IMG/VR virus record: IMGVR_UViG_2740892439_000020
Location: 1 to 15,118 of that record
Length of the DNA: 15,118 nucleotides
DNA from: a virus
Taxonomy: Duplodnaviria; Heunggongvirae; Uroviricota; Caudoviricetes
Reading direction: 5' to 3' (one strand)
How positions within the stretch are numbered: position 1 is the first letter of the stretch; every line of letters begins with the position of its first letter. The notes beneath the pieces were generated by a model. That model saw only the letters and a list, made by a program, of their open reading frames with translations, had not been told where the DNA came from and did no database searches. Positions 2,066 through 15,118 of the stretch are shown here, one piece after another. The position numbers and the translations under genes are program-made.

Positions 2066-2306
2066 TGGTTGCCCCCTGCTTTTCTGCCTTCAACACCATG
2101 TGCGAACCATCATCCAGCTCCCACGCGATCTCACCACCTTCAGCCATGACCAGTCGCCACACCAATTGAGCAGCCTCATTGGTAACATCACGACCTGGAT
2201 CATTGCCAACGCGCATACGCCCACCTTCAACATCGCGCATTTTTGCCAGCATGATAGTTTTTGATAGCGGTGAAAAACCAAGCTGTAGTCGTGCTGAATT
2301 ACTCAC
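2052..2306 (-). CDS. hypothetical small protein (84 aa)
   Basis: ORF 2052..2333 in track; start moved to GTG 2304-2306, which has a strong AAAGGAGG 6 nt upstream; overlaps the next gene start by 14 nt. Confidence 0.45.
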
Positions 2307-2469
2307 TGGTTGCCTCCTTTGCGCACATCGCATTCAGATATTTGTTTTTATTCACTGATGGAAAAGAATTTCTCTTAAGCAATTCCTCTCTCGATGGCAT
2401 TGGCTTTACGCGTTGGCGAATAATCATTTCTGCCGGAAGAATGCCGGGATTGTATGCAAGTCCTCTCAT
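2299..2469 (-). CDS. hypothetical small protein (56 aa)
   Basis: part of track ORF 2299..2502; ATG 2467-2469 (MRGLAYNP...) has GAGGAA 7 nt upstream; alternative start at 2484-2486 overlaps the upstream gene. Confidence 0.35.
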
Positions 2470-2479
2470 GGTAAATTCC

Positions 2480-2776
2480 TCAGTCATTACTGATAGCGCC
2501 ATAGCGTGAGCGGTAATTACGCAGGCGCGGGTCGATATATTCAGGGAAGTGGGTATATGTGGCTTTGCGGAATGGTCGGATTGATGTTTCGTTTATTCGG
2601 TCTTTTTCCTGTTTTTCTGCGAGTTGTATATCGCGTCGGTACTTCCGTTCTTCTTTTGTTTCTGGTGGCAGAGCAAGAAACGCGTCGAGATTATTCTTGA
2701 TATTTTCCAGCACCTCCGATATGGAATTGCCGGAACAGCGGCGCGGGTCGTCCGCACCATATAGAGGCGCTGGCAT
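2480..2776 (-). CDS. hypothetical phage protein (98 aa)
   Basis: ATG 2774-2776 with AGGAGA 6 nt upstream; starts 15 nt downstream of the exonuclease stop. Confidence 0.5.
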
Positions 2777-2792
2777 GGTTTTCTCCTGTTGA

Positions 2793-3341
2793 TTATTTAG
2801 CTAACTTTTTCCAGATCGCTGAAACGTATTTGGCTTGGTGAATGGCATCATCAAGCGCGTTGTGGCGAGTTCCTTTGAATGGCATATCTCGCTTAGGGTC
2901 GAATCCTATTACCTTCCCAAGTTCGACGATTGTTCTTACGTCGCGGTCATTCCACCACTGCCACGGAACTGGCTGCCCTGTCAGCGAATAACTGTTTCGG
3001 AGAATAACGCAGTCAAATGATGCTCCATTCCCCCAAACCTGAACGAATTTGTGGTTAGCGTTCTTTATGATGAATTCAGATAACCATGAAAGAGCCGTTG
3101 AAAGCTCCTGAGTGTTGCTGGTTAGCGATTTTCTGGCTTCTTCACTCTGTTCCAGCCACCATAAAATCGTTGAAGCGTCAGGACGCGCCCGATATCGCAT
3201 TGATGACTCAAGCGAGATATTTACCGAGAACTCTTCTCCTGTTTCTCCGGTATTCGGGTCAAAGAATACCGCCCCAATAGAAATAACTGGCGCATATGGC
3301 CCGTTGCCCATTGTTTCAAGGTCAACCATTAAGTGATTCAT
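2793..3341 (-). CDS. DEDDh-family (DnaQ-like) 3'-5' exonuclease
   Basis: 182 aa; Exo I motif MVDLET, Exo II WGNGASFDCVIL, Exo III HNALDDAIHQAKY; AAGGA RBS. Confidence 0.75.
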   Translation of the reverse strand: MNHLMVDLETMGNGPYAPVISIGAVFFDPNTGETGEEFSVNISLESSMRYRARPDASTILWWLEQSEEARKSLTSNTQELSTALSWLSEFIIKNANHKFVQVWGNGASFDCVILRNSYSLTGQPVPWQWWNDRDVRTIVELGKVIGFDPKRDMPFKGTRHNALDDAIHQAKYVSAIWKKLAK

Positions 3342-3349
3342 GTAAGTCC

Positions 3350-3856
3350 TTAAATTGCGTGAATAGCGTGACGAGGGAAGGGGAGAGTTACTGGTGCAAA
3401 GGGTATATCGTCGTCAAAATCCATCGGTGGTTCGTTGTGTTGTGCTGGTGATGATTGCTGCTGTGGCTTCTGTGATTGCCTGCTGGCTGCTTGTTGTTTG
3501 CTGTCGCCAATTCCGCCAAGCATTTGCATCACGCCATTAATTCCGACATGAACCTCGGTTGTGTAACGGTCTTGCCCTGACTGGTCTTTCCACTTTCTGG
3601 TTCTCAGCATTCCCTCGAAATAAATCTGATCACCTTTTTTCACATACTGCCCCACGACCTCAGCCAGTTTCCCGGATACAGCAACACGATGCCATTCAGT
3701 CAATTCCTTTTGCTCGCCAGTATTTTTATCTCGCCATTGTTCTGACGTGGCTATTGTCAGGTTAGCGAACGCTGTACCTGATGGTGAGTATCGAACTTCC
3801 GGGTCTTGTCCTACCCGACCAAGGATAATCACCTTATTTACGCCTCTGCTTGCCAT
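3350..3856 (-). CDS. ssb: single-stranded DNA-binding protein (SSB)
   Basis: 168 aa; N-terminal OB-fold region nearly colinear with E. coli SSB ([33 protein letters not shown]), Gly/Gln-rich linker, acidic C-terminal tail DFDDDIPF. Confidence 0.9.
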
Positions 3857-4564
3857 TTATGCCGCCTGTTTTAGTTCGTTAACTCTGATGTTCATTACCT
3901 GAACGCATTTAGCCTGCGCCTCCTCATTGCCAGCCATTAATTGCCAGTCACGCTGATAACGCTCGATGAGTTTTTTCTTGTCAGTTTCTGTTGACGCATA
4001 ATCGCTGAAGTCTTTCAGGATTTGTTCGCAGTCAACCGATGGAGATTTCTGGTTGGTATTTTCTGGTGATGGTTTGTTATCTGATGCTGGTATTGCCCAT
4101 CCCGGCAGCGATGGAGGGAGCCAGTAAAATCCTGTTCCATCCTTCAGTTTTGCCCTGTGCCACCCCTGCTTTTTATCGAGAGATGTTTGTGCGAAACCTT
4201 CCTCAAGGTTATACAGATACCGACCGATTCCCCACTGAACGGCAGCGCGCTTCATTGCACCGGAACGACCACCTTTGACGGCTTCTACCTGCGTGTTTTC
4301 AGCAGCATCCCATTTGGTTACCCATTCGGAATCAATCTTTATTGATATGCCGCATTCAACGCCTCCGTTGTTGGGAATATCGCGGTATTCATTGCGCCAT
4401 CCTGCTTTTCCGCAAACATCGTCCAGGCGTTTCATGATTGCCCGGTTCGTGACATAAGCCAGCACCATAGCCCACACTTTGCCATCGCGTGTTTTACCGC
4501 TTTGCTGTATTCGCCATTCGATATCTTCAGGGCCGAATGGCTCATCGAATTTATTCAAATCCAT
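3857..4564 (-). CDS. single-strand annealing protein (Rad52/Erf-like recombinase)
   Basis: 235 aa; directly abuts ssb (TAA then ATG); N-terminal annealase-like region with RAAVQWGIGRYLYNL motif; GAGGTGA RBS; sub-family assignment uncertain. Confidence 0.65.
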   Translation of the reverse strand: MDLNKFDEPFGPEDIEWRIQQSGKTRDGKVWAMVLAYVTNRAIMKRLDDVCGKAGWRNEYRDIPNNGGVECGISIKIDSEWVTKWDAAENTQVEAVKGGRSGAMKRAAVQWGIGRYLYNLEEGFAQTSLDKKQGWHRAKLKDGTGFYWLPPSLPGWAIPASDNKPSPENTNQKSPSVDCEQILKDFSDYASTETDKKKLIERYQRDWQLMAGNEEAQAKCVQVMNIRVNELKQAA

Positions 4565-4651
4565 AATTCACCTCAGAATGGACATGGCCCAAGGAAATAA
4601 CGCTGATTTAATACTTCAGTCTTTGCCGCATTTAAAAATACGCGAACACCT

Positions 4652-4822
4652 TCACGATCTCCCTTCTGGCGATACATTAACGCCTGCTGCGTGTACATGC
4701 GTCTCTGTAACTTGCTCTCCTTCACTGTGGTTGCGAGTGACATGAATATCTCCTTCGTTACCGATTAATTCTTTCATCTGACGAATGAATTCTTCGTCTG
4801 ACCAGTTATCTGTAAAACTCAT
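4652..4822 (-). CDS. hypothetical small acidic protein in the kil position (56 aa)
   Basis: ATG 4820-4822 overlaps the cIII-like stop as ATGA; part of track ORF 4652..4852. Confidence 0.4.
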   Translation of the reverse strand: MSFTDNWSDEEFIRQMKELIGNEGDIHVTRNHSEGEQVTETHVHAAGVNVSPEGRS

Positions 4823-5228: not shown

Positions 5229-5678
5229 TTACTTAACCAATGATGCTGCATATTCGATAAGATAAAGTTTTGGGGCCAGCCAAATTTTTAACCAAGTCAT
5301 ATTGGTTACTACACCAATAATAAAAATCCCCCACAGAGTCAAAACTCCAACCAATGGCATGATAAGAAGGTTAATATCTCCTTTGCTATCCCAAACCATT
5401 GTCGGCCTGTATTTGGGATTTCCCCTCTCCCATGAGTATCCTTCATCACCGATTTTACCTGTCTCAACTCTTTGGCACTGCTTCTTCATAAACCAGAAAA
5501 CCAGTGGGATTGTTAGAATGGCTATTAATGTTTTAATCAGACTGTCAACCATATTCCATAGCAGCAACTGATGAACAACATCAGGAATCTGTGCTTGGCT
5601 AAATGAAACAGCAGCATCTATTCCATTGCTGGCTTTTTGCAGTAGTTCTACGAGAATCTTGTTTGCTTGTTCTTCCAT
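5229..5678 (-). CDS. predicted inner-membrane protein with two transmembrane helices (149 aa); possible superinfection-exclusion-type protein
   Basis: hydrophobic segments LIKTLIAILTIPLVFWFM and LLIMPLVGVLTLWGIFIIGVV; ATG 5676-5678 with AAGGTGA upstream; sits between N and cIII; function is inference only. Confidence 0.5.
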   Translation of the reverse strand: MEEQANKILVELLQKASNGIDAAVSFSQAQIPDVVHQLLLWNMVDSLIKTLIAILTIPLVFWFMKKQCQRVETGKIGDEGYSWERGNPKYRPTMVWDSKGDINLLIMPLVGVLTLWGIFIIGVVTNMTWLKIWLAPKLYLIEYAASLVK

Positions 5679-5718: not shown

Positions 5719-5746
5719 CAAAAATAAAGGCCACCATCAGGCAGCC
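5719..5746 (-). terminator. hairpin + T-tract element (tL1-type) between N region and membrane protein gene
   Basis: minus-strand 7-bp stem GGCUGCC/GGUGGCC (two G-U), loop UGAU, then CUUUAUUUUUG. Confidence 0.4.
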
Positions 5747-5817
5747 TTGTAGTTCTGTTTACCAAGTTCTCTGGCAATCATTGTCGTCGTTCGTATTGTC
5801 CACACCATTGATTTTTA

Positions 5818-5904
5818 TCAATAGTCGTAGTCATACGGATAGTCCTGGTATTGTTCCATCACATCCTGAGGATGCTCTTCGAACTCATCAAATTCTTCTT
5901 CCAT
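5818..5904 (-). CDS. 28-aa highly acidic mini-protein (MEEEFDEFEEHPQDVMEQYQDYPYDYDY)
   Basis: not in ORF track; ATG 5902-5904 with GAGGTGA 3-5 nt upstream, immediately after the N stop codon. Confidence 0.3.
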   Translation of the reverse strand: MEEEFDEFEEHPQDVMEQYQDYPYDYDY

Positions 5905-5912
5905 ATCTCACC

Positions 5913-6212
5913 TCAAATAAGTGGTTTACTGCCTAATTTCATTTTCTGGCGACCAACACAAGTCACACCCATTTCACTGCGTGGCTTGCGGTAGTAAATA
6001 CGATTCTGTTTACGCTCGATTTCTTCTGCCTTCTTGCAGCGAAGGCTTCCGAGTGATGCTGCTTTGTCTGCTCTGACGCAACCAGAGAGCTTTAGCGCAA
6101 TTTTTCGCGCCAGTGCTTCATTACTGCGTCGCTCGGCAATAAGTTCTGCTCTGCGAGCTTTGTAGCGGCTTTTTGCCGTACCTTTGGATTCTTTCCAGAC
6201 AATGGTTACCAT
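5913..6212 (-). CDS. N: antitermination protein N (phi21-type arginine-rich motif)
   Basis: ATG 6210-6212 with AAAGGAG 6 nt upstream (track ORF starts at 6242 without an RBS); N-terminal ARM GTAKSRYKARRAELIAERR as I recall for phage 21 N; first gene downstream of pL/nutL. Confidence 0.7.
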   Translation of the reverse strand: MVTIVWKESKGTAKSRYKARRAELIAERRSNEALARKIALKLSGCVRADKAASLGSLRCKKAEEIERKQNRIYYRKPRSEMGVTCVGRQKMKLGSKPLI

Positions 6213-6322
6213 GATGGTCTCCTTTAAGTGGCTTTGGCGCATGACGCGTCGAGGTGCTTATCTTCTCGATCGCTGTCTTGCAGCTGCAATTCGCGCCATC
6301 CCCAAAACCACTCAAGTTCTGG

Positions 6323-6363
6323 TCTCAACGGTTAGGTTGAGAGTCCGTCGATGTTAAAGAGCC
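6323..6363 (-). promoter_or_regulatory. nutL: nutL site: boxA (GCTCTTTAACA) and boxB hairpin (UCUCAAC-CUAACC-GUUGAGA)
   Basis: boxA consensus-like 11-mer at 6352-6362 on minus strand, then a perfect 7-bp stem hairpin at 6323-6342, between pL and N. Confidence 0.65.
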
Positions 6364-6404
6364 TGCCAATCTGTTCCGTTTGGCTTCCAGCGTCCTGCTG
6401 ATGG

Positions 6405-6464
6405 CTTAAATTTAAGACTTCTTAATTTATTGGTCAAGTGCATTTTTGAAGAAAACTTAATTTT
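6405..6464 (-). promoter_or_regulatory. pL promoter with OL operators
   Basis: minus-strand -35 TTGACC (6432-6437), 17-nt spacer, -10 TAAATT (6409-6414); P22-type operator-like 18-mers with TTAAG/CTTAA half-sites at 6410-6427 and 6445-6462; 12-bp perfect palindrome CTTAAATTTAAG at 6405-6416. Confidence 0.5.
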
Positions 6465-6500
6465 ATGGGCGTGAATTTAGTTTGTCTTTGATTTTTAACG

Positions 6501-6528
6501 GGAAATAAAAAAGGGGCGAAAGCCCTTA
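6501..6528 (-). terminator. putative terminator immediately after the repressor gene
   Basis: minus-strand GGGC-UUUC-GCCC hairpin followed by CUUUUUUAUUU, starting at the repressor stop codon. Confidence 0.4.
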
Positions 6529-7176
6529 AGGAAGGTTTGCTAGCTTGGCATCAACGACAACGCCAATGATTTTACAGTTCCCATTGATTTCAATCATTGG
6601 GTATTGTGGATTGAGTGGTTTCAGGAATTTTCTACCGGCATCAATAACTAACTTTTTGAATGTCGCCTCGTTTTCTCCTTCAAGTTTGGCGACTACCAGC
6701 TTTCCATTACGTGGTTCGACTTCTGGGTCGACGAGAATAATCATCCCCTCAGGAATACTCAGTCCTGCCGGGGCAGTCATTGAATCGCCTTTAACGTCGA
6801 GCCAAAAAGAGTCTTCAGAACAATCTACCGTTGTGTCGTACCAGTTATCTATTGCACGCCTATGATATGGCTCTACAGCTTCCATCCAACATCCTGCGCT
6901 TACCCAACTAATTAGAGGATATGAACCTCTTGGATCATGCCTGCTGTGATAGGCAATGTTTGAAAGACTATCCTCTCCTTTCAACAGGTAATCAGGGGAG
7001 CACTGCAAAGCCTTGGCTAAGGCCAATAGGTTTTCGCCATTGGGCTCAGTTTCAGATCGCTCCCATTGGGAAATAGCAACATTAGACACGCCAACCATCT
7101 TGCCAAGGGCAGCCTGCCTAATCTTGAGTTCTTTTCTGCGAGCGCGAATACGCTCACCCATCAGTTGTGTATTCAT
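6526..7176 (-). CDS. c2: prophage repressor, C2/CI type (N-terminal HTH, C-terminal LexA-like S24 self-cleaving domain), P22 C2-like
   Basis: 216 aa; N-terminal domain (MNTQLMGERIRARR..QAALGKMVGVSNVAISQWERSE) matches my recollection of the P22 C2 DNA-binding domain; C-terminal Ser-Lys peptidase region (GDSMTAPAG...KLVVAKL...TFKKL); divergent from cro across an operator region. Confidence 0.85.
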   Translation of the reverse strand: MNTQLMGERIRARRKELKIRQAALGKMVGVSNVAISQWERSETEPNGENLLALAKALQCSPDYLLKGEDSLSNIAYHSRHDPRGSYPLISWVSAGCWMEAVEPYHRRAIDNWYDTTVDCSEDSFWLDVKGDSMTAPAGLSIPEGMIILVDPEVEPRNGKLVVAKLEGENEATFKKLVIDAGRKFLKPLNPQYPMIEINGNCKIIGVVVDAKLANLP

Positions 7177-7245
7177 AGTTAAGACATCTTAAATAAACTT
7201 GACTTAAGATTCCTTTGGTGGATAATTTAAGTGTTCTTTAATTTC
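7177..7245. promoter_or_regulatory. OR operator region with pR (and divergent pRM)
   Basis: three 18-bp P22-type operator-like sites of form ANTNAAG-N4-CTTNANT at 7177-7194, 7202-7219, 7225-7242; pR -35 TTGACT 7199-7204 and -10 GATAAT 7221-7226 on plus strand. Confidence 0.6.
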
Positions 7246-7256
7246 GGAGCGAGTCT

Positions 7257-7442
7257 ATGTACAAAAAAGATGTTATTGACCACTTCGGAACCCAGCGTGC
7301 TGTTGCTAAAGCACTAGGCATTAGCGATGCAGCAGTCTCTCAGTGGAAAGAAGTTATCCCAGAGAAAGACGCCTATCGATTGGAAATCGTTACAGCTGGC
7401 GCCCTGAAGTATCAAGAAAGTGCTTACCGCCAAGCGGCATAA
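7257..7442 (+). CDS. cro: Cro repressor (P22 Cro-like)
   Basis: 61 aa; GGAG RBS; HTH QRAVAKALGISDAAVSQW; sequence matches my recollection of P22 Cro; divergent from repressor. Confidence 0.85.
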   Translation: MYKKDVIDHFGTQRAVAKALGISDAAVSQWKEVIPEKDAYRLEIVTAGALKYQESAYRQAA

Positions 7443-7449
7443 GCAAATT

Positions 7450-7489
7450 GCTCTTTAACAGTTCTGGCCTTTCACCTCTAACCGGGTGA
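7450..7489 (+). promoter_or_regulatory. nutR: nutR site: boxA (GCTCTTTAACA) and boxB hairpin with CUAACCG loop
   Basis: boxA 7450-7460 identical to the nutL boxA; boxB stem UCACC/GGUGA at 7472-7489 shares the CUAACCG loop sequence with nutL boxB. Confidence 0.6.
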
Positions 7490-7498
7490 GCAAACATC

Positions 7499-7525
7499 AG
7501 CGGCAAATCCATTGGGTGTGCCGCT
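7499..7525 (+). other. 7-bp inverted repeat AGCGGCA-N13-TGCCGCT (candidate tR1-region structure, no U-tract)
   Basis: read from sequence between nutR and the cII-like gene; lambda tR1 is rho-dependent, which is consistent with absence of a T-run. Confidence 0.3.
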
Positions 7526-7557
7526 ATAACTCAATATCAATATAGGAAAATTAACAA

Positions 7558-7854
7558 ATGGCACAAGCAAGCTACAGCAAGCCAACACAGCGAGAAATTG
7601 ATCGCGCTGAAACTGATTTACTCATCAACCTGTCAACGCTTACCCAGCGCGGTCTGGCAAAGATGATTGGCTGTCATGAATCGAAGATAAGCAGAACGGA
7701 CTGGAGGTTTATTGCTTCGGTCTTGTGTGCTTTCGGAATGGCATCAGACATCAGTCCGATTAGCAGGGCTTTTAAGTATGCGCTTGATGAAATCACAAAG
7801 AAAAAATCCCCGGCCGCCACCGAGGATTTTAAGCAAATTGATATGCAATTCTGA
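7558..7854 (+). CDS. cII: CII-family transcriptional activator
   Basis: 98 aa; HTH region and C-terminal KKKSPAATEDFKQIDMQF resemble lambda CII (NKKRPAATERSEQIQMEF); follows cro and nutR. Confidence 0.75.
   Translation: MAQASYSKPTQREIDRAETDLLINLSTLTQRGLAKMIGCHESKISRTDWRFIASVLCAFGMASDISPISRAFKYALDEITKKKSPAATEDFKQIDMQF
7567..7580 (-). promoter_or_regulatory. candidate CII-binding site of pRE (TTGC-N6-TTGC direct repeat)
   Basis: minus strand reads TTGCTGTAGCTTGC inside the 5' end of the cII-like gene, the position and form of the lambda pRE activator site. Confidence 0.45.
7797..7826 (-). terminator. oop-type antisense terminator within the 3' end of the cII-like gene
   Basis: minus-strand hairpin (7807-7826) followed by AUUUUUUCUUUG; same location as the lambda oop RNA terminator. 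Confidence 0.45.
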
Positions 7855-7886
7855 GGGAATTACTGGATCAATCCACAGGAGTAATT

Positions 7887-8048
7887 ATGACAAAACGTCG
7901 TAAGAAATACCAGGAAAAAGAAGAGATTCGACACCCTGATTCACCTGAGGGATTAGTGGTAGCCGCAGCAAATAACAGGGCGTTCGCAGAGCGCCTTGTT
8001 GGTGTTTACAGACTAGCCAAAGCAGGAGTGAAACATGGGCGTCGTTAA
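7887..8048 (+). CDS. small basic protein (53 aa, [53 protein letters not shown])
   Basis: not in ORF track; ATG 7887-7889 with AGGAG 6 nt upstream; ends 14 nt inside the O-like gene. Confidence 0.45.
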   Translation: MTKRRKKYQEKEEIRHPDSPEGLVVAAANNRAFAERLVGVYRLAKAGVKHGRR

Positions 8049-8796
8049 GTTAGCTGATTACAGGCCTCAACTGGAGGTCGTGGAGCATCGCGTGGCAGAT
8101 ACCGAAGATGGTTTCATGCGCGTTGCTAACGAGATTACCGACAGTCTGCTGATGGCTGATTTAACCGTCCGGCAGTTGAAGGTGATGCTCGCTATCATGC
8201 GCAAGACATACGGATTCAATAAGCCGATGGATCGACTCACAAACACGCAGATAGCAGCCATGACAGGTATTCATCACACTCATGTTTGCGCTGCCAAGCG
8301 CCAGCTTATCGAGCGTAAATTCCTCATTGCTGATGGCGTGAAAATCGGAGTGAACAAGGTGGTTTCTCAGTGGATTAGCCAGGACAGCTTAACATTAGCT
8401 AAAACAGCTAATAAAACATTAGCCGAGTCGGCTAATGGGTATAAGCCAAGTCAGCTAAACACAAAAGACAATATACAAAAGACAATAAATACAAATACCC
8501 CCTTACCCCCTAACGGGGGCGGCGATTGGCAGGTTAAACCTGAACGTCGCAAGGCAGAACGAATCGACTACGAATCCTTCCTGAACGCCTACAACGCCGA
8601 AGTCGGTGACAGACTTCCACACGCTGTTGCGGTCAACGAGAAACGCAAACGCCGCCTGAAGAAAATCATCCCGCAACTGAAAACGCCAAACGTGGACGGT
8701 TTCAGAGCGTATGTCAGGGCGTTTGTGCATCAGCCAAGCCGTTTTACTTCGGAGACAACGACACTGGCTGGACGGCAGATTTTGATTACCTGCTGA
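8035..8796 (+). CDS. O: replication initiation protein, lambda O-like N-terminal domain (possibly 3'-frameshifted, see findings)
   Basis: 253 aa as read; AGGAG RBS; N-terminal region [37 protein letters not shown] resembles lambda O (DLTKRQFKVLLAILRKTYGWNKPMDRITDSQ); iterons inside the gene. Confidence 0.8.
8394..8500. repeat. candidate replication origin: ATTAGC/GCTAAT iteron-like palindromes followed by an AT-rich tract
   Basis: palindromes ATTAGCT-AAAAC-AGCTAAT (8394-8412) and ATTAGCCGA-G-TCGGCTAAT (8418-8436), a degenerate third copy near 8441-8458, then AT-rich 8459-8500; inside the O-like coding region as for ori-lambda. Confidence 0.5.
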
Positions 8797-8851
8797 GGGA
8801 AGATTCGTTAACGGGAGTACGGGAAGGGAAGTTTGCAGACAGGGGGATAGC

Positions 8852-10228
8852 ATGAGACAGGATATCGAAGCGAGCGTTATCGGTGGCCTGCTGATTGGTG
8901 GATTAACACCAACTGCCAGTGACGTTCTGGCAACGCTTGAGCCGGAAGCGTTTTCAATTCCGCTCTACCGGAAAGCCTTCGAGGTTATCCGCAAGCAGGC
9001 GAGAAACAGAAACCTAATCGACGCGCTGATGGTTGCCGAGGCGTGCGGAGAGGAGCATTTCACGTCAATCCTGATGACCAGCAAAAACTGCCCGAGCGCC
9101 GCAAACCTGAAGGGATATGCCGGAATGGTCGCGGATAACTATCACCGCCGTCTGGTGCTGGAAATCATGGATGAAATGCGTGAACCAATTCAGAGCGGAA
9201 CCATCGATACATCGAGTCAGGCGATGGACGAGCTTGTAAAGCGTCTTTCAGCCATCAGAAAGCCCCGTGACGAGGTTAAACCTGTACGGTTAGGGGAAAT
9301 CATCACTGACTACACTGACACGCTTGACAGGCGTCTGAGGAACGGAGAAGAGTCAGATACCCTGAAGACCGGAATCGAAGAACTTGATGTCATCACCGGA
9401 GGGATGAACGCGGAAGACCTGGTGATAATCGCTGCCCGTCCTGGCATGGGGAAAACCGAACTGGCGCTGAAGATTGCCGAAGGCGTTGCAAGCCGCGTTA
9501 TTCCTGGTTCTGACGTCCGGCGCGGAGTATTGATTTTCTCAATGGAAATGAGCGCATTGCAGATTGCAGAGCGAAGCATTGCCAACGCCGGGAGGATGTC
9601 GGTTAGCGTACTGCGAAATCCTGCATCGATGGATGACGAAGGCTGGGCGCGTGTTGCTAACGGCATGAGTCAGCTTGCAGATTTGGATGTATGGGTAGTC
9701 GATGCCTCGCGGTTATCGGTCGAAGAAATACGCTCAATCGCAGAACGACACAAACAGGAAAATCCAAACCTGTCACTCATCATGGCGGATTATCTTGGCC
9801 TGATTGAGAAGCCGAAAGCAGACCGCAACGACCTCGCAATTGCTCACATCTCCGGAAGCCTGAAGGCGATGGCGAAAGACCTGAAAACGCCTGTTATCTC
9901 CCTAAGTCAGCTTTCGCGCGATGTTGAGAAGCGACCAAACAAACGCCCGACAAACGCAGATTTGCGTGATTCAGGAAGCATTGAGCAGGACGCAGACTCA
10001 ATCATCATGCTCTATCGGGAAGCGGTATATGACGAGAACAGTAGCGCCGCGCCATTTGCTGAAATCATCGTGACGAAAAACCGTTTTGGCTCGCTTGGTA
10101 CGGTTTACCAGCGGTTCTGTAACGGACATTTTGTTGCATGTGACCAGGATGAAGCCAGACAGATTTGCACAGCATCAAATGCACCCGCTGCACGTGGCAG
10201 ACGATATGCACAAGGGGCTGACGTATGA
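8852..10228 (+). CDS. DnaB-family replicative DNA helicase (P22 gene 12-like, replaces lambda P)
   Basis: 458 aa; DnaB N-terminal domain; Walker [13 protein letters not shown]; Walker B and RecA-fold motifs ([18 protein letters not shown]); follows the O-like gene. Confidence 0.9.
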
Positions 10229-10253
10229 CCATCTACATCACTGAGCTAATAAC

Positions 10254-10286
10254 AGGCCTGCTGGTAATCGCAGGCCTTTTTATTTG
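10254..10286 (+). terminator. rho-independent terminator (tR2-like) after the helicase gene
   Basis: perfect 8-bp stem AGGCCTGC/GCAGGCCT with 8-nt loop followed by TTTTTATTT. Confidence 0.65.
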
Positions 10287-10847: not shown

Positions 10848-11258
10848 ATGAAGCAAACAATCTTCCTCCGAAGTAAGCAACAACAGCAAGCCGCAATAAA
10901 TGCCATCCTCGCAACACCACTCGATAAAGACAAGCCAGTCACCATCCGCATTACTGACTACAAGCGCAATCTTGACCAGAACGCAAAATTTCACGCGATG
11001 CTGGCGGATATCGCTCGTCAGGTTCAATGGTGCGGCAAATGGTTAAAACCGGAACAGTGGAAGGTTTTGTTGATTAGCGGTCATGCAGTGGCAACAAAAC
11101 AGGAAGCTGATGTTTTGCGCGGCCTTGAAGGCGAATTCGTCAACATTCGCGAAAGCAGCGCGCAGATGAGCGTGAAGCGTATGGCAAGTCTGATCGAGTA
11201 CACAACAGCCTGGGCTATTGGTCAGGGTGTCAGATTTACCGACAGGAGGTACGAATGA
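10848..11258 (+). CDS. ninB: NinB (Orf-family recombination mediator)
   Basis: 136 aa; AAGGAG RBS; similarity to lambda NinB/Orf ([25 protein letters not shown] vs lambda LDQNRKLWACLGDVSRQVEWHGRWL). Confidence 0.8.
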
Positions 11259-11431
11259 GACGACAGCGACGAAGTATCACCGACATAATCTGCGAAAACT
11301 GCAAATACCTTCCAACGAAACGCTCCAGAAATAAACGCAAGCCAATCCCAAAAGAATCTGACGTAAAAACCTTCAATTACACAGCTCACCTGTGGGATAT
11401 CCGGTGGCTAAGATATCGTGCGAGGAAATGA
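11255..11431 (+). CDS. ninE: NinE
   Basis: 58-aa ORF not in track; ATGA overlap with ninB stop; AGGAGG RBS; [30 protein letters not shown] matches my recollection of lambda NinE. Confidence 0.75.
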
Positions 11432-11787
11432 CAATGGATTATTCACAGTTAAGTGATTTTGAAATTAACAGAATGGTAGGAGACATAATTTTTAAAGGCC
11501 TTTGGGCAAGTAAACCGGAAACATCAGGGAATAACACCAACAAATGGTATTACGGAAATGCTGATACAACTTTTGAGCCATTAAACCCTTTACCTGACTA
11601 CTGCAATGATCCTAGCGCCTCATGGCCGATTATTGAGAAATACAGGATTAGCATTATCAATCTCGATGAAGACGAGTGGGGTGCACGTGGTGTGGCCGAC
11701 TGTAAATCTAAGCGAGCTATACATGAAAATTCCCTCCGCGCCGCCATGATTGTCTTTCTCATGATGCAGGACGCCAATAATGCTTAG
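11428..11787 (+). CDS. NinX-like hypothetical protein (about 118 aa)
   Basis: ATG 11428 overlaps the ninE stop as ATGA (alternative ATG 11434 with GAGGAAA RBS); track ORF starts further upstream at GTG 11392 inside ninE; position between ninE and ninF as for P22 ninX. Confidence 0.55.
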
Positions 11788-14709: not shown

Positions 14710-15118
14710 TCAACGTAAGGCGTTCCTCGATATGCTGGCGTGGTCAGAGGGAACTGATAACGGACGGCAGAAAACCAGAAATCATGGTTATGACGTCATT
14801 GTTGGCGGAGAGCTATTCACTGATTACTCCGATCACCCTCGCAAACTTGTCACGCTAAACCCCAAACTCAAATCAACAGCCGCCGGACGCTACCAGCTTC
14901 TTTCCCGTTGGTGGGATGCCTACCGTAAGCAGCTTGGCCTGAAAGACTTCTCTCCGAAAAGCCAGGACGCTGTGGCACTGCAACAGATTAAAGAGCGTGG
15001 CGCTTTACCGATGATTGACCACGGTGATATTCGTCAGGCTATCGACCGTTGCAGCAATATCTGGCTTCACTGCCGGGAGCTGGTTATGGTCAGTTCGAGC
15101 ATAAGGCTGACAGCCTGA
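14693..15118 (+). CDS. R: endolysin R (lytic transglycosylase), C-terminus altered by an apparent 1-bp deletion frameshift
   Basis: overlaps S by 17 nt as in lambda; residues 1-123 match lambda R ([35 protein letters not shown]...); final 18 codons are out of frame relative to lambda R and end at the last triplet of the window. Confidence 0.85.

Follow-up and report, generated by a model that had tools for sequence, protein, structure and literature searches.

The region from position 5913 to position 7854 of the window, by which we mean the whole 15,118-nt stretch of tailed-phage DNA under analysis (IMG/VR record IMGVR_UViG_2740892439_000020), carries a repressor and a Cro protein of the phage P22 type next to an N antiterminator of the phage 21 type, and the question is whether two immunity systems were joined at this locus or whether the entire region was acquired as one block. 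A preliminary description had considered the former, proposing that a P22 immunity was joined to the N and nut sites of phage 21 within these limits. The comparison with reference phages evidences a distinct scenario. Phage 21 (OL657228, 33641–35542) aligns with positions 5913–7813 as a single unbroken piece at 99.2% identity, and the same one-piece match at 99.2% results for λ imm21 (OM418625) and for DE3, the prophage of BL21(DE3). Together with mEp235 (JQ182731) and phiv205-1 (MN340231), these two are 99.0–99.5% identical to 5913–7813, and in mEp235 and phiv205-1 this level is maintained over 5902–7896, including the HK97-type 3′ end of cII, phiv205-1 reaching 99.5% over that range; for 5913–7813, mEp235 is at 99.3% and phiv205-1 at 99.5%. 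As identity to one reference, phage 21, is uniform over 5913–7854, the proposed mosaic fails for this stretch and stands only for its flanks. From the sequence, it is nearly certain that 5913–7854 corresponds to the classical imm21 segment, the immunity and early antitermination region of coliphage 21 in intact form, within a lambdoid phage or prophage that drew its remaining modules from different lineages.

The elements in common with phage 21 comprise N, nutL, pL/OL, the repressor, OR/pR, cro, nutR and cII codons 1–81, and all genes of the immunity region are intact. From pL through nutR, base-by-base pairwise alignment with phage 21 yields two differing positions, with zero differences in the OL and OR regions. 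Indeed, the OL1–3, OR1–3, boxA-L, boxA-R, nutL, nutR and pRE elements annotated in OL657228 each fall on identical window sequence. The differences amount to three N residues, all in the C-terminal third of the protein (V66I, S75R and I90M), one synonymous change in the repressor gene and one base fewer in a terminator hairpin. The module is found at a coverage of at least 80% in 229 of 5426 complete Escherichia coli genomes.

The repressor gene (6526–7176, minus strand) encodes a 216-residue prophage repressor of the phage 21 cI and P22 C2 family, composed of an N-terminal helix-turn-helix domain (HTH_3, PF01381, 6.4e-17), which matches PDB 1ADR/2R1J, and a C-terminal Peptidase_S24 domain (PF00717, 1.2e-30). 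It is 100% identical in amino acid sequence to the phage 21 protein and 94% to P22 C2, in agreement with the C2-type assignment made earlier. Aligning the protein with P22 C2 and λ cI shows no variation at residues A94–G95, S132 and K175, which we take to correspond to the λ cleavage site Ala111–Gly112 and to the catalytic Ser149 and Lys192. A stretch identical in P22 C2 and in the window repressor, SNVAISQWERS, is presumably the recognition helix. Cro (7257–7442, plus strand) belongs to the P22_Cro family (PF14549, E = 5.7e-28), being 100% identical to its phage 21 and 98% to its P22 counterpart. On the question of shared specificity, Botstein and Herskowitz reportedly found in 1974 that P22 immC and phage 21 are co-immune, which the identical SNVAISQWERS stretch and the near-identical operators would fit; none of the accessible literature that we searched states a shared immunity specificity of the P22 c2 and phage 21 repressors.

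The operators flank this gene on both sides. A search with the pattern ANTNAAG-N4-CTTNANT places OL1 at 6410–6427 (no mismatch) and OL2 at 6445–6462 (one mismatch), and a weak, degenerate OL3 with three mismatches is assigned to about 6475–6492 by homology to the phage 21 annotation. OR3 (7177–7194), OR2 (7202–7219) and OR1 (7225–7242) are identical to those of phage 21; relative to P22 there are four base differences in OR, OR1 and OL1 being identical. The promoter scan identified pL on the minus strand (6409–6437), with a −35 hexamer TTGACC at 6432–6437 and a −10 hexamer TAAATT, its start corresponding in the phage 21 annotation to about 6402, and pR on the plus strand, with the −35 at 7199–7204 and the −10 at 7221–7226; the hexamers of both promoters overlap operators. 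Right after the repressor gene, a terminator scan revealed a terminator-like hairpin (6511–6527, minus strand); phage 21, whose annotation gives it as a terminator, has CCCC here in place of the CCC of the window. Between the repressor stop codon (6526) and the pL −35 hexamer there are 88 bp, close to the roughly 90 bp estimated before, and the rex genes are absent from this interval, as had been noticed.

The gene for N (5913–6212, minus strand) encodes a phage 21-type antiterminator of 99 residues (PHROG 271, N-like). Its start at 6212 is set from the phage 21 annotation and an AAGGAG ribosome-binding site, a longer 109-residue reading frame making use of an upstream ATG. The arginine-rich motif (ARM), at residues 11–29, had been associated with phage 21 N, and this is borne out: residues 8–29 (ESKGTAKSRYKARRAELIAERR) are 100% identical to chain A of PDB 1NYB, the φ21 N peptide–boxB complex. 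Over its length the protein shares 97% of its residues with the N of phage 21 and 99% with that of phiv205-1, its C-terminal RNA polymerase-binding tail matches chain N of 6GOV, and a match to the Pfam N_peptide family falls below the cutoff.

Upstream of terminators, the transcripts from pL and pR both contain a boxA followed by a boxB with a CUAACC loop. On the left these are boxA-L (GGCTCTTTAACA; 6352–6363, minus strand), read in the sequence, in agreement with the phage 21 annotation and conserved with P22, and the nutL hairpin UCUCAAC[CUAACC]GUUGAGA (6323–6342, minus strand), which has a 7-bp stem and a hexaloop, folds at −9.3 kcal/mol (z = −2.67) and is identical to the annotated phage 21 nutL stem-loop. 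On the right, boxA-R (TGCTCTTTAACA; 7449–7460, plus strand) was read in the same manner and agrees with the phage 21 annotation, and the nutR hairpin UCACCU[CUAACC]GGGUGA (7472–7489, plus strand), obtained as a centroid fold, has a hexaloop on a stem of 6 bp closed by a U·G pair and is identical to annotated phage 21 nutR. The loop had been given as CUAACCG; the two hairpins do share it, but it is the hexaloop CUAACC, the G being the 3′ stem-closing base. With Rfam gathering thresholds, no match was obtained anywhere in the window, a result of little weight as Rfam may lack models for nut/boxB or oop elements.

These findings support a matching of N to the nut sites, with phage 21 specificity. 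The specificity matching pointed out in the preliminary description is right, but the pattern is an old one, already in print (Franklin 1985). Gally, CUS-3 and N7 retain the immunity block with yet another matched pair of N motif and boxB, the Gally-type boxB being UCCCGC[CGAAAU]GCGGGA; in these phages the N ARM and both boxB hairpins change as a set around a block that extends from one boxA to the other. The presence of a P22-like repressor beside a 21-type N was published by Franklin (1985, J Mol Biol 181:75, as cited in PMC9074901) and by Cilley and Williamson (2003, RNA 9:663, as cited in PMC4509934). The relation to λ is one of layout: the order N–nutL–pL/OL–repressor–OR/pR–cro–nutR–cII is the same, as are the S24 C-terminal domain, in which the residues for cleavage and catalysis are conserved, the polymerase-binding tail of N and boxA. 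However, λ cI is 34–35% identical to the window repressor, its Cro is of another family, its operators have 17 bp and another sequence, its boxB elements have GAAGA/GAAAA pentaloops, and rexA/rexB lie downstream of cI.

The cII activator gene (7558–7854, plus strand; Phage_CII, E = 2.7e-33) marks the right end of the block. Its codons 1–81 are identical to phage 21 and its last 17 codons are of HK97 type, which sets a junction at about 7789; amino acid identity is 89% to the phage 21 protein and 99% to that of HK97. A predicted cII binding site of pRE, TTGC-N6-TTGC, is found at 7567–7580 on the minus strand (reverse complement TTGCTGTAGCTTGC), where the annotations of phage 21 and mEp235 also have it. 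The terminator scan further detected an oop-type antisense terminator, with a 12-bp stem and a T run, inside the 3′ end of the gene (7803–7830, minus strand), at a position equivalent to the oop terminator of the P22 annotation.

The direct results concern sequence identity, domain content, the enrichment of operators, the folding of the hairpins and the limits of the modules, and the binding and regulatory activities that follow are all taken over from phage 21 and P22, where they have been studied, on the grounds of near-identity. By this analogy, the LexA-like repressor would bind the 18-bp operators OL1–3 and OR1–3 and switch off pL and pR, conferring immunity to phages with 21-type operators, and RecA-stimulated self-cleavage at Ala94–Gly95 via the Ser132/Lys175 pair would lead to prophage induction. 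Cro would occupy the same operators, committing the phage to the lytic pathway. The N protein expressed from pL would bind through its arginine-rich helix the CUAACC-loop boxB in the nutL and nutR transcripts and, with boxA and host Nus factors, would allow RNA polymerase to read through the downstream terminators. The cII protein probably activates pRE at the TTGC-N6-TTGC site inside its own 5′ end, and a putative antisense RNA of oop type would end inside the 3′ end of the same gene.

The junctions that are real and recent lie on either side of the switch, one near 5795 and the other, in the 3′ end of cII, near 7789. On the left, the window departs from phage 21 in that ral is cut to an 18-codon stump, followed by an unrelated gene for a 149-residue membrane protein (orf149); this and the other small open reading frames have no meaningful PADLOC or Pfam match. 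On the right, phage 21 continues with λ-type O/P, whereas the window is of HK97 type from the last 17 cII codons onwards: positions 7528–10256 (cII–gp53–O–P, the last being DnaB-like) are 97.6% identical to HK97, with 99% amino acid identity for the helicase and 100% for gp53, and differ from it by a one-nucleotide deletion at 8733 that puts the final ~40 residues of the O-like protein out of frame. The replication genes had been described as P22-like; they are indeed DnaB-type, but are only 80.9% identical to those of P22. Similarly, the λ-like character ascribed to nin/Q/S/R holds for ninG–ninH–ninI–Q (97.5%) and S/R (96.7%) but not for NinB, which is 40% identical to the λ protein and of mEp235/HK620 type. 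mEp235 also shares the abc2/exo/SSB/Rad52 block (2303–4822, 96.8%) and Q–S–R (98.3%); it differs in a Nun gene adjoining a variant N C-terminus (N 78% identical to the window), and both mEp235 and phiv205-1 have a different O, a different DnaB-like helicase (31–32% amino acid identity) and a nin region that differs in parts. No phage record or complete E. coli genome covers at least 80% of the whole window. The module shuffling proposed earlier is therefore correct for the window as a whole, a lambdoid mosaic in which different blocks have different best references, but does not extend into 5913–7854; the combination consists of imm21, the HK97-type cII 3′ end and O/DnaB-type P, a mEp235-type recombination block, λ-type ninG–Q–S–R and the orf149 gene.

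With the flanks so assigned, we have considered whether the block itself could be a recombinant, with P22-derived repressor, Cro and operators joined to phage 21 N and nut, one junction falling between N/nutL and pL and the other between cro and nutR. Breakpoints relative to P22 do exist: P22 immC is similar to the window, at 83.6% nucleotide identity, only over 6348–7460, that is, between the boxA elements, boxA-R being the final element in common and the homology ending exactly at both boxB hairpins. What the two share is the repressor family, Cro, the operator pattern, the pL/pR layout and the boxA elements. In the gene comparison of phage references the window N has no P22 match; the N of P22, gp24, is 21% identical and has a different ARM (GNAKTRRHERRRKLAIER), the P22 boxB loops are GACAA pentaloops as opposed to CUAACC, so that neither the gp24 ARM nor the GACAA loop is seen here, and in P22 sieB separates N from ral. 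However, phage 21 has the same breakpoints and the window is contiguous with it at 99.2% straight across, which indicates that they are ancestral to the imm21 lineage and do not reflect an event in this genome. The shared block is also nearer to phage 21 (100% in both proteins) than to P22, and the OL657228 record, of a phage 21 from Paris sewage of the 1950s, gives no hint of a laboratory recombinant with P22. We thus regard such a joining as very unlikely. Less probable still, to the point of being negligible, is that the operator and boxB likenesses arose by chance in AT-rich intergenic DNA. The energy of the nutR hairpin is unexceptional taken alone (z = −1.31), and with two mismatches allowed the operator pattern has 12 matches against 8.4 expected, with no enrichment, hence the use of at most one mismatch. 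At that threshold, however, the P22-type pattern recognized earlier has five matches (6410, 6445, 7177, 7202 and 7225) against a chance expectation of 0.59, none of 200 shuffles reaches five, all five flank the repressor gene, and the sites coincide base for base with the annotated operators and nut sites of phage 21.

A further possibility concerns the present state of the element, which may be defective. Private single-G deletions, both outside the immunity region, frameshift the replication initiator (O-like, 8733) and the endolysin R (15063); the frameshifted O allele has no exact match in IMG/VR and GTDB representative genomes, whereas the intact allele is found in at least 120 IMG/VR contigs, and ral is truncated. 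This could be read as an imm21 module in a decaying, non-inducible prophage, the switch now serving only as an immunity cassette retained by the host. However, the three one-nucleotide deletions, at 6523, 8733 and 15063, are all in runs of G or C, which is typical of sequencing or assembly error, the immunity genes show no damage, and a window devoid of structural genes and attachment sites is no gauge of the completeness of the element, so that we consider this reading unlikely. Somewhat more doubtful is the notion that the locus holds anything new; at most this would be bookkeeping, with known modules in an unseen combination, and perhaps a recently inactivated prophage in which the O and R frameshifts leave an intact imm21 as immunity cassette only.

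Returning to the reading as classical imm21, the region, its P22-like repressor and Cro and its φ21 N–boxB pair have been known since the 1980s and form no new mosaic: being an almost exact copy of the coliphage 21 immunity and N region in an ordinary patchwork lambdoid prophage, the stretch represents textbook biology. It carries little weight as a discovery, and its value lies in the correction of where the recent junctions lie.

The window represents the early region of a lambdoid element, either a phage or a prophage, with a xis-like gene, ea-type early genes and an abc2/exonuclease/SSB/Rad52-type recombination block in its left part, a gene for a 149-aa membrane protein, a ral stump, an orf28 homologue and then N, repressor, cro and cII in the middle, and to the right an O-like initiator and a DnaB-like helicase, followed by nin genes, Q, S and the beginning of R. 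The interval under study (5913–7854), bounded by the stop codons of N and cII, had been described as P22-type immunity joined to N and nut sites of phage 21 type, and the elements then named are all found in the sequence. N (5913–6212, minus strand, 99 aa) is identical over residues 8–29, which include the arginine-rich motif, to the phage 21 N peptide of the structure with boxB RNA (PDB 1NYB), and its C-terminal tail resembles that of λ N (6GOV chain N). The repressor (6526–7176, minus strand) combines HTH_3 and Peptidase_S24 domains, residues 1–76 being almost identical to the solved N-terminal domain of P22 C2, and Cro (7257–7442) matches the Pfam family P22_Cro. The operator pattern ANTNAAG-N4-CTTNANT occurs at five sites with at most one mismatch (0.59 expected by chance; none of 200 shuffles reaches five), all within the two intergenic regions either side of the repressor gene; these are OL1, OL2, OR3, OR2 and OR1, OL3 being degenerate, and the pL and pR hexamers overlap operators. 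Rex genes are absent, the repressor stop codon and the −35 of pL lying 88 bp apart with a terminator-like hairpin in between. The two boxB hairpins take the proposed fold; however, their shared loop is a hexaloop, CUAACC, the seventh base (G) assigned to it closing the stem.

The proposed joining of P22 and phage 21 modules is not borne out. When the interval is compared by megablast with 50,697 phage records, phage 21 (OL657228), λ imm21 and prophage DE3 give one unbroken match of 99.2% over 5913–7813, and the wild imm21-type phages phiv205-1 and mEp235 reach 99.3–99.5% across the full interval, whereas the P22 match is restricted to 6348–7460 at 83.6%. Base-by-base alignment with phage 21 from pL to nutR reveals only two differences, a synonymous change and one base in the terminator hairpin, and amino acid identity is 100% for repressor and Cro and 97% for N. 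The regulatory sites annotated in phage 21 (OL1–3, OR1–3, boxA-L and boxA-R, the nutL and nutR stem-loops, pL and the cII site of pRE) all fall on identical window sequence. Judged by sequence, the unbroken match, the identical sites and the limited P22 similarity make the interval the classical imm21 segment, with no P22/21 junction inside it. In OL657228 the repressor is annotated as 573 nt (34255–34827, 190 aa), and the full 216-aa frame (to 34905) is open, identical to the window repressor and collinear with P22 C2, so that the deposited start looks to give too short a gene. The same record labels its three OR operators OR2, OR2 and OR3.

Junctions are found at the edges of this segment. 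Phage 21 similarity fades at about 5795 on the left, in the ral/orf28 area, and at about 7789 on the right, roughly at cII codon 82. From there on the window is of HK97 type (7528–10256, 97.6%), phage 21 of λ type; positions 7803–7830 (minus strand) hold an oop-type antisense terminator. The two phages checked for it, mEp235 and phiv205-1, share the HK97-type cII end. At 80% coverage or more, the interval is carried by both and by 229 of the 5426 complete E. coli genomes, so the version seen in the window is widespread. Beyond the replication genes, the description of nin, Q, S and R as λ-like holds for ninG-ninH-ninI-Q (97.5%) and S/R (96.7%) but not for NinB (10848–11258, plus strand), which is of mEp235/HK620 type, with 95–97% identity to mEp235 and phiv205-1 and just 40% to the NinB of λ, P22, 21 and HK97, so that the nin region is itself a patchwork. 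Between ninE and ninF, orf131 (11392–11787) has 50% identity to the P22 ninX region. No single phage record or complete E. coli genome was found to cover 80% of the window, which is normal for lambdoid phages.

To the left, the ral stump (5781–5834, minus strand, MTTTIDKNQWCGQYERRQ*) has 18 codons versus 66 aa in λ, and the equivalents of λ 34152–34225 are absent between short overlapping blastn matches, a pattern that suggests an internal deletion. Next to the stump, the orf28 homologue (5821–5906, minus strand) is intact. Just beyond a terminator-like hairpin (5727–5748, minus strand), the pL operon carries orf149 (5229–5678, minus strand), a conserved predicted membrane protein of PHROG 3054 (unknown function). 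Phages Gally, HF4s and Stx2_EH2086 have copies with 99% identity and HK639 one with 58%; phage 21, P22, λ, HK97, mEp235 and phiv205-1 lack it, and it has no Pfam or PADLOC match. Its moron-like position prompts the guess, and only a guess, of a role in superinfection exclusion.

Three private one-base deletions, two of which frameshift essential genes, are all homopolymer contractions in G/C runs. At 8733, in the O-like gene (8035–8796, plus strand), one G replaces the GG of HK97 and puts the final ~40 residues of the initiator protein out of frame, and the ORF consequently ends at 8796 without overlapping the helicase start at ~8855; this allele has no exact match in IMG/VR or in GTDB representative genomes, and the intact allele is present in at least 120 IMG/VR contigs. 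At 15063, in the R endolysin gene (plus strand, from 14693 up to the end of the window), GG versus GGG in λ, HK97 and mEp235 frameshifts the C-terminus, and at 6523, in the hairpin of the terminator that follows the repressor gene, CCC stands against CCCC in phage 21 and phiv205-1. Their shared character suggests either sequencing error or a recently decaying prophage.

From the identity to studied systems, we infer that the repressor would bind the OL and OR operators and silence pL and pR, with Cro contesting the same operators. RecA-dependent induction would be expected, since the S24 domain retains the Ala-Gly cleavage site and the Ser/Lys dyad. N would bind the boxB hairpins in nascent RNA and, with boxA and host Nus factors, allow terminator readthrough, and cII would activate pRE at TTGCTGTAGCTTGC (7567–7580, minus strand). 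Botstein and Herskowitz reportedly described in 1974 an immunity specificity common to P22 immC and phage 21, in agreement with the identity to P22 of the repressor stretch SNVAISQWERS, OR1 and OL1.

At a deeper level the preliminary description is right, but what it describes is phage 21 itself. In alignments with P22, tight homology runs from boxA-L through pL/OL, c2, OR/pR and cro to boxA-R and collapses exactly at each of the two boxB hairpins. Gally, CUS-3 and N7 share this immunity block (97% amino acid identity for repressor and Cro) and the middle and C-terminal parts of phage 21 N, but a third arginine-rich motif, DDNARNRRRARRQAQREQ, and a third boxB, UCCCGC[CGAAAU]GCGGGA, at both nutL and nutR, with a recombination junction inside N right after the motif, at about residue 33. 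These three pairs indicate that the N-terminal motif of N changes jointly with both boxB loops, while the immunity block that these surround is conserved. The pattern is an old one, already in print (Franklin 1985, J Mol Biol 181:75, as cited in PMC9074901), and is consistent with the structural work of Cilley and Williamson (2003), as cited in PMC4509934. The finding is already known, the interval being a near-exact copy of a founding model system of molecular genetics that is common in E. coli genomes, and the use of the analysis lies in the corrected interpretation and in the placing of the real junctions.
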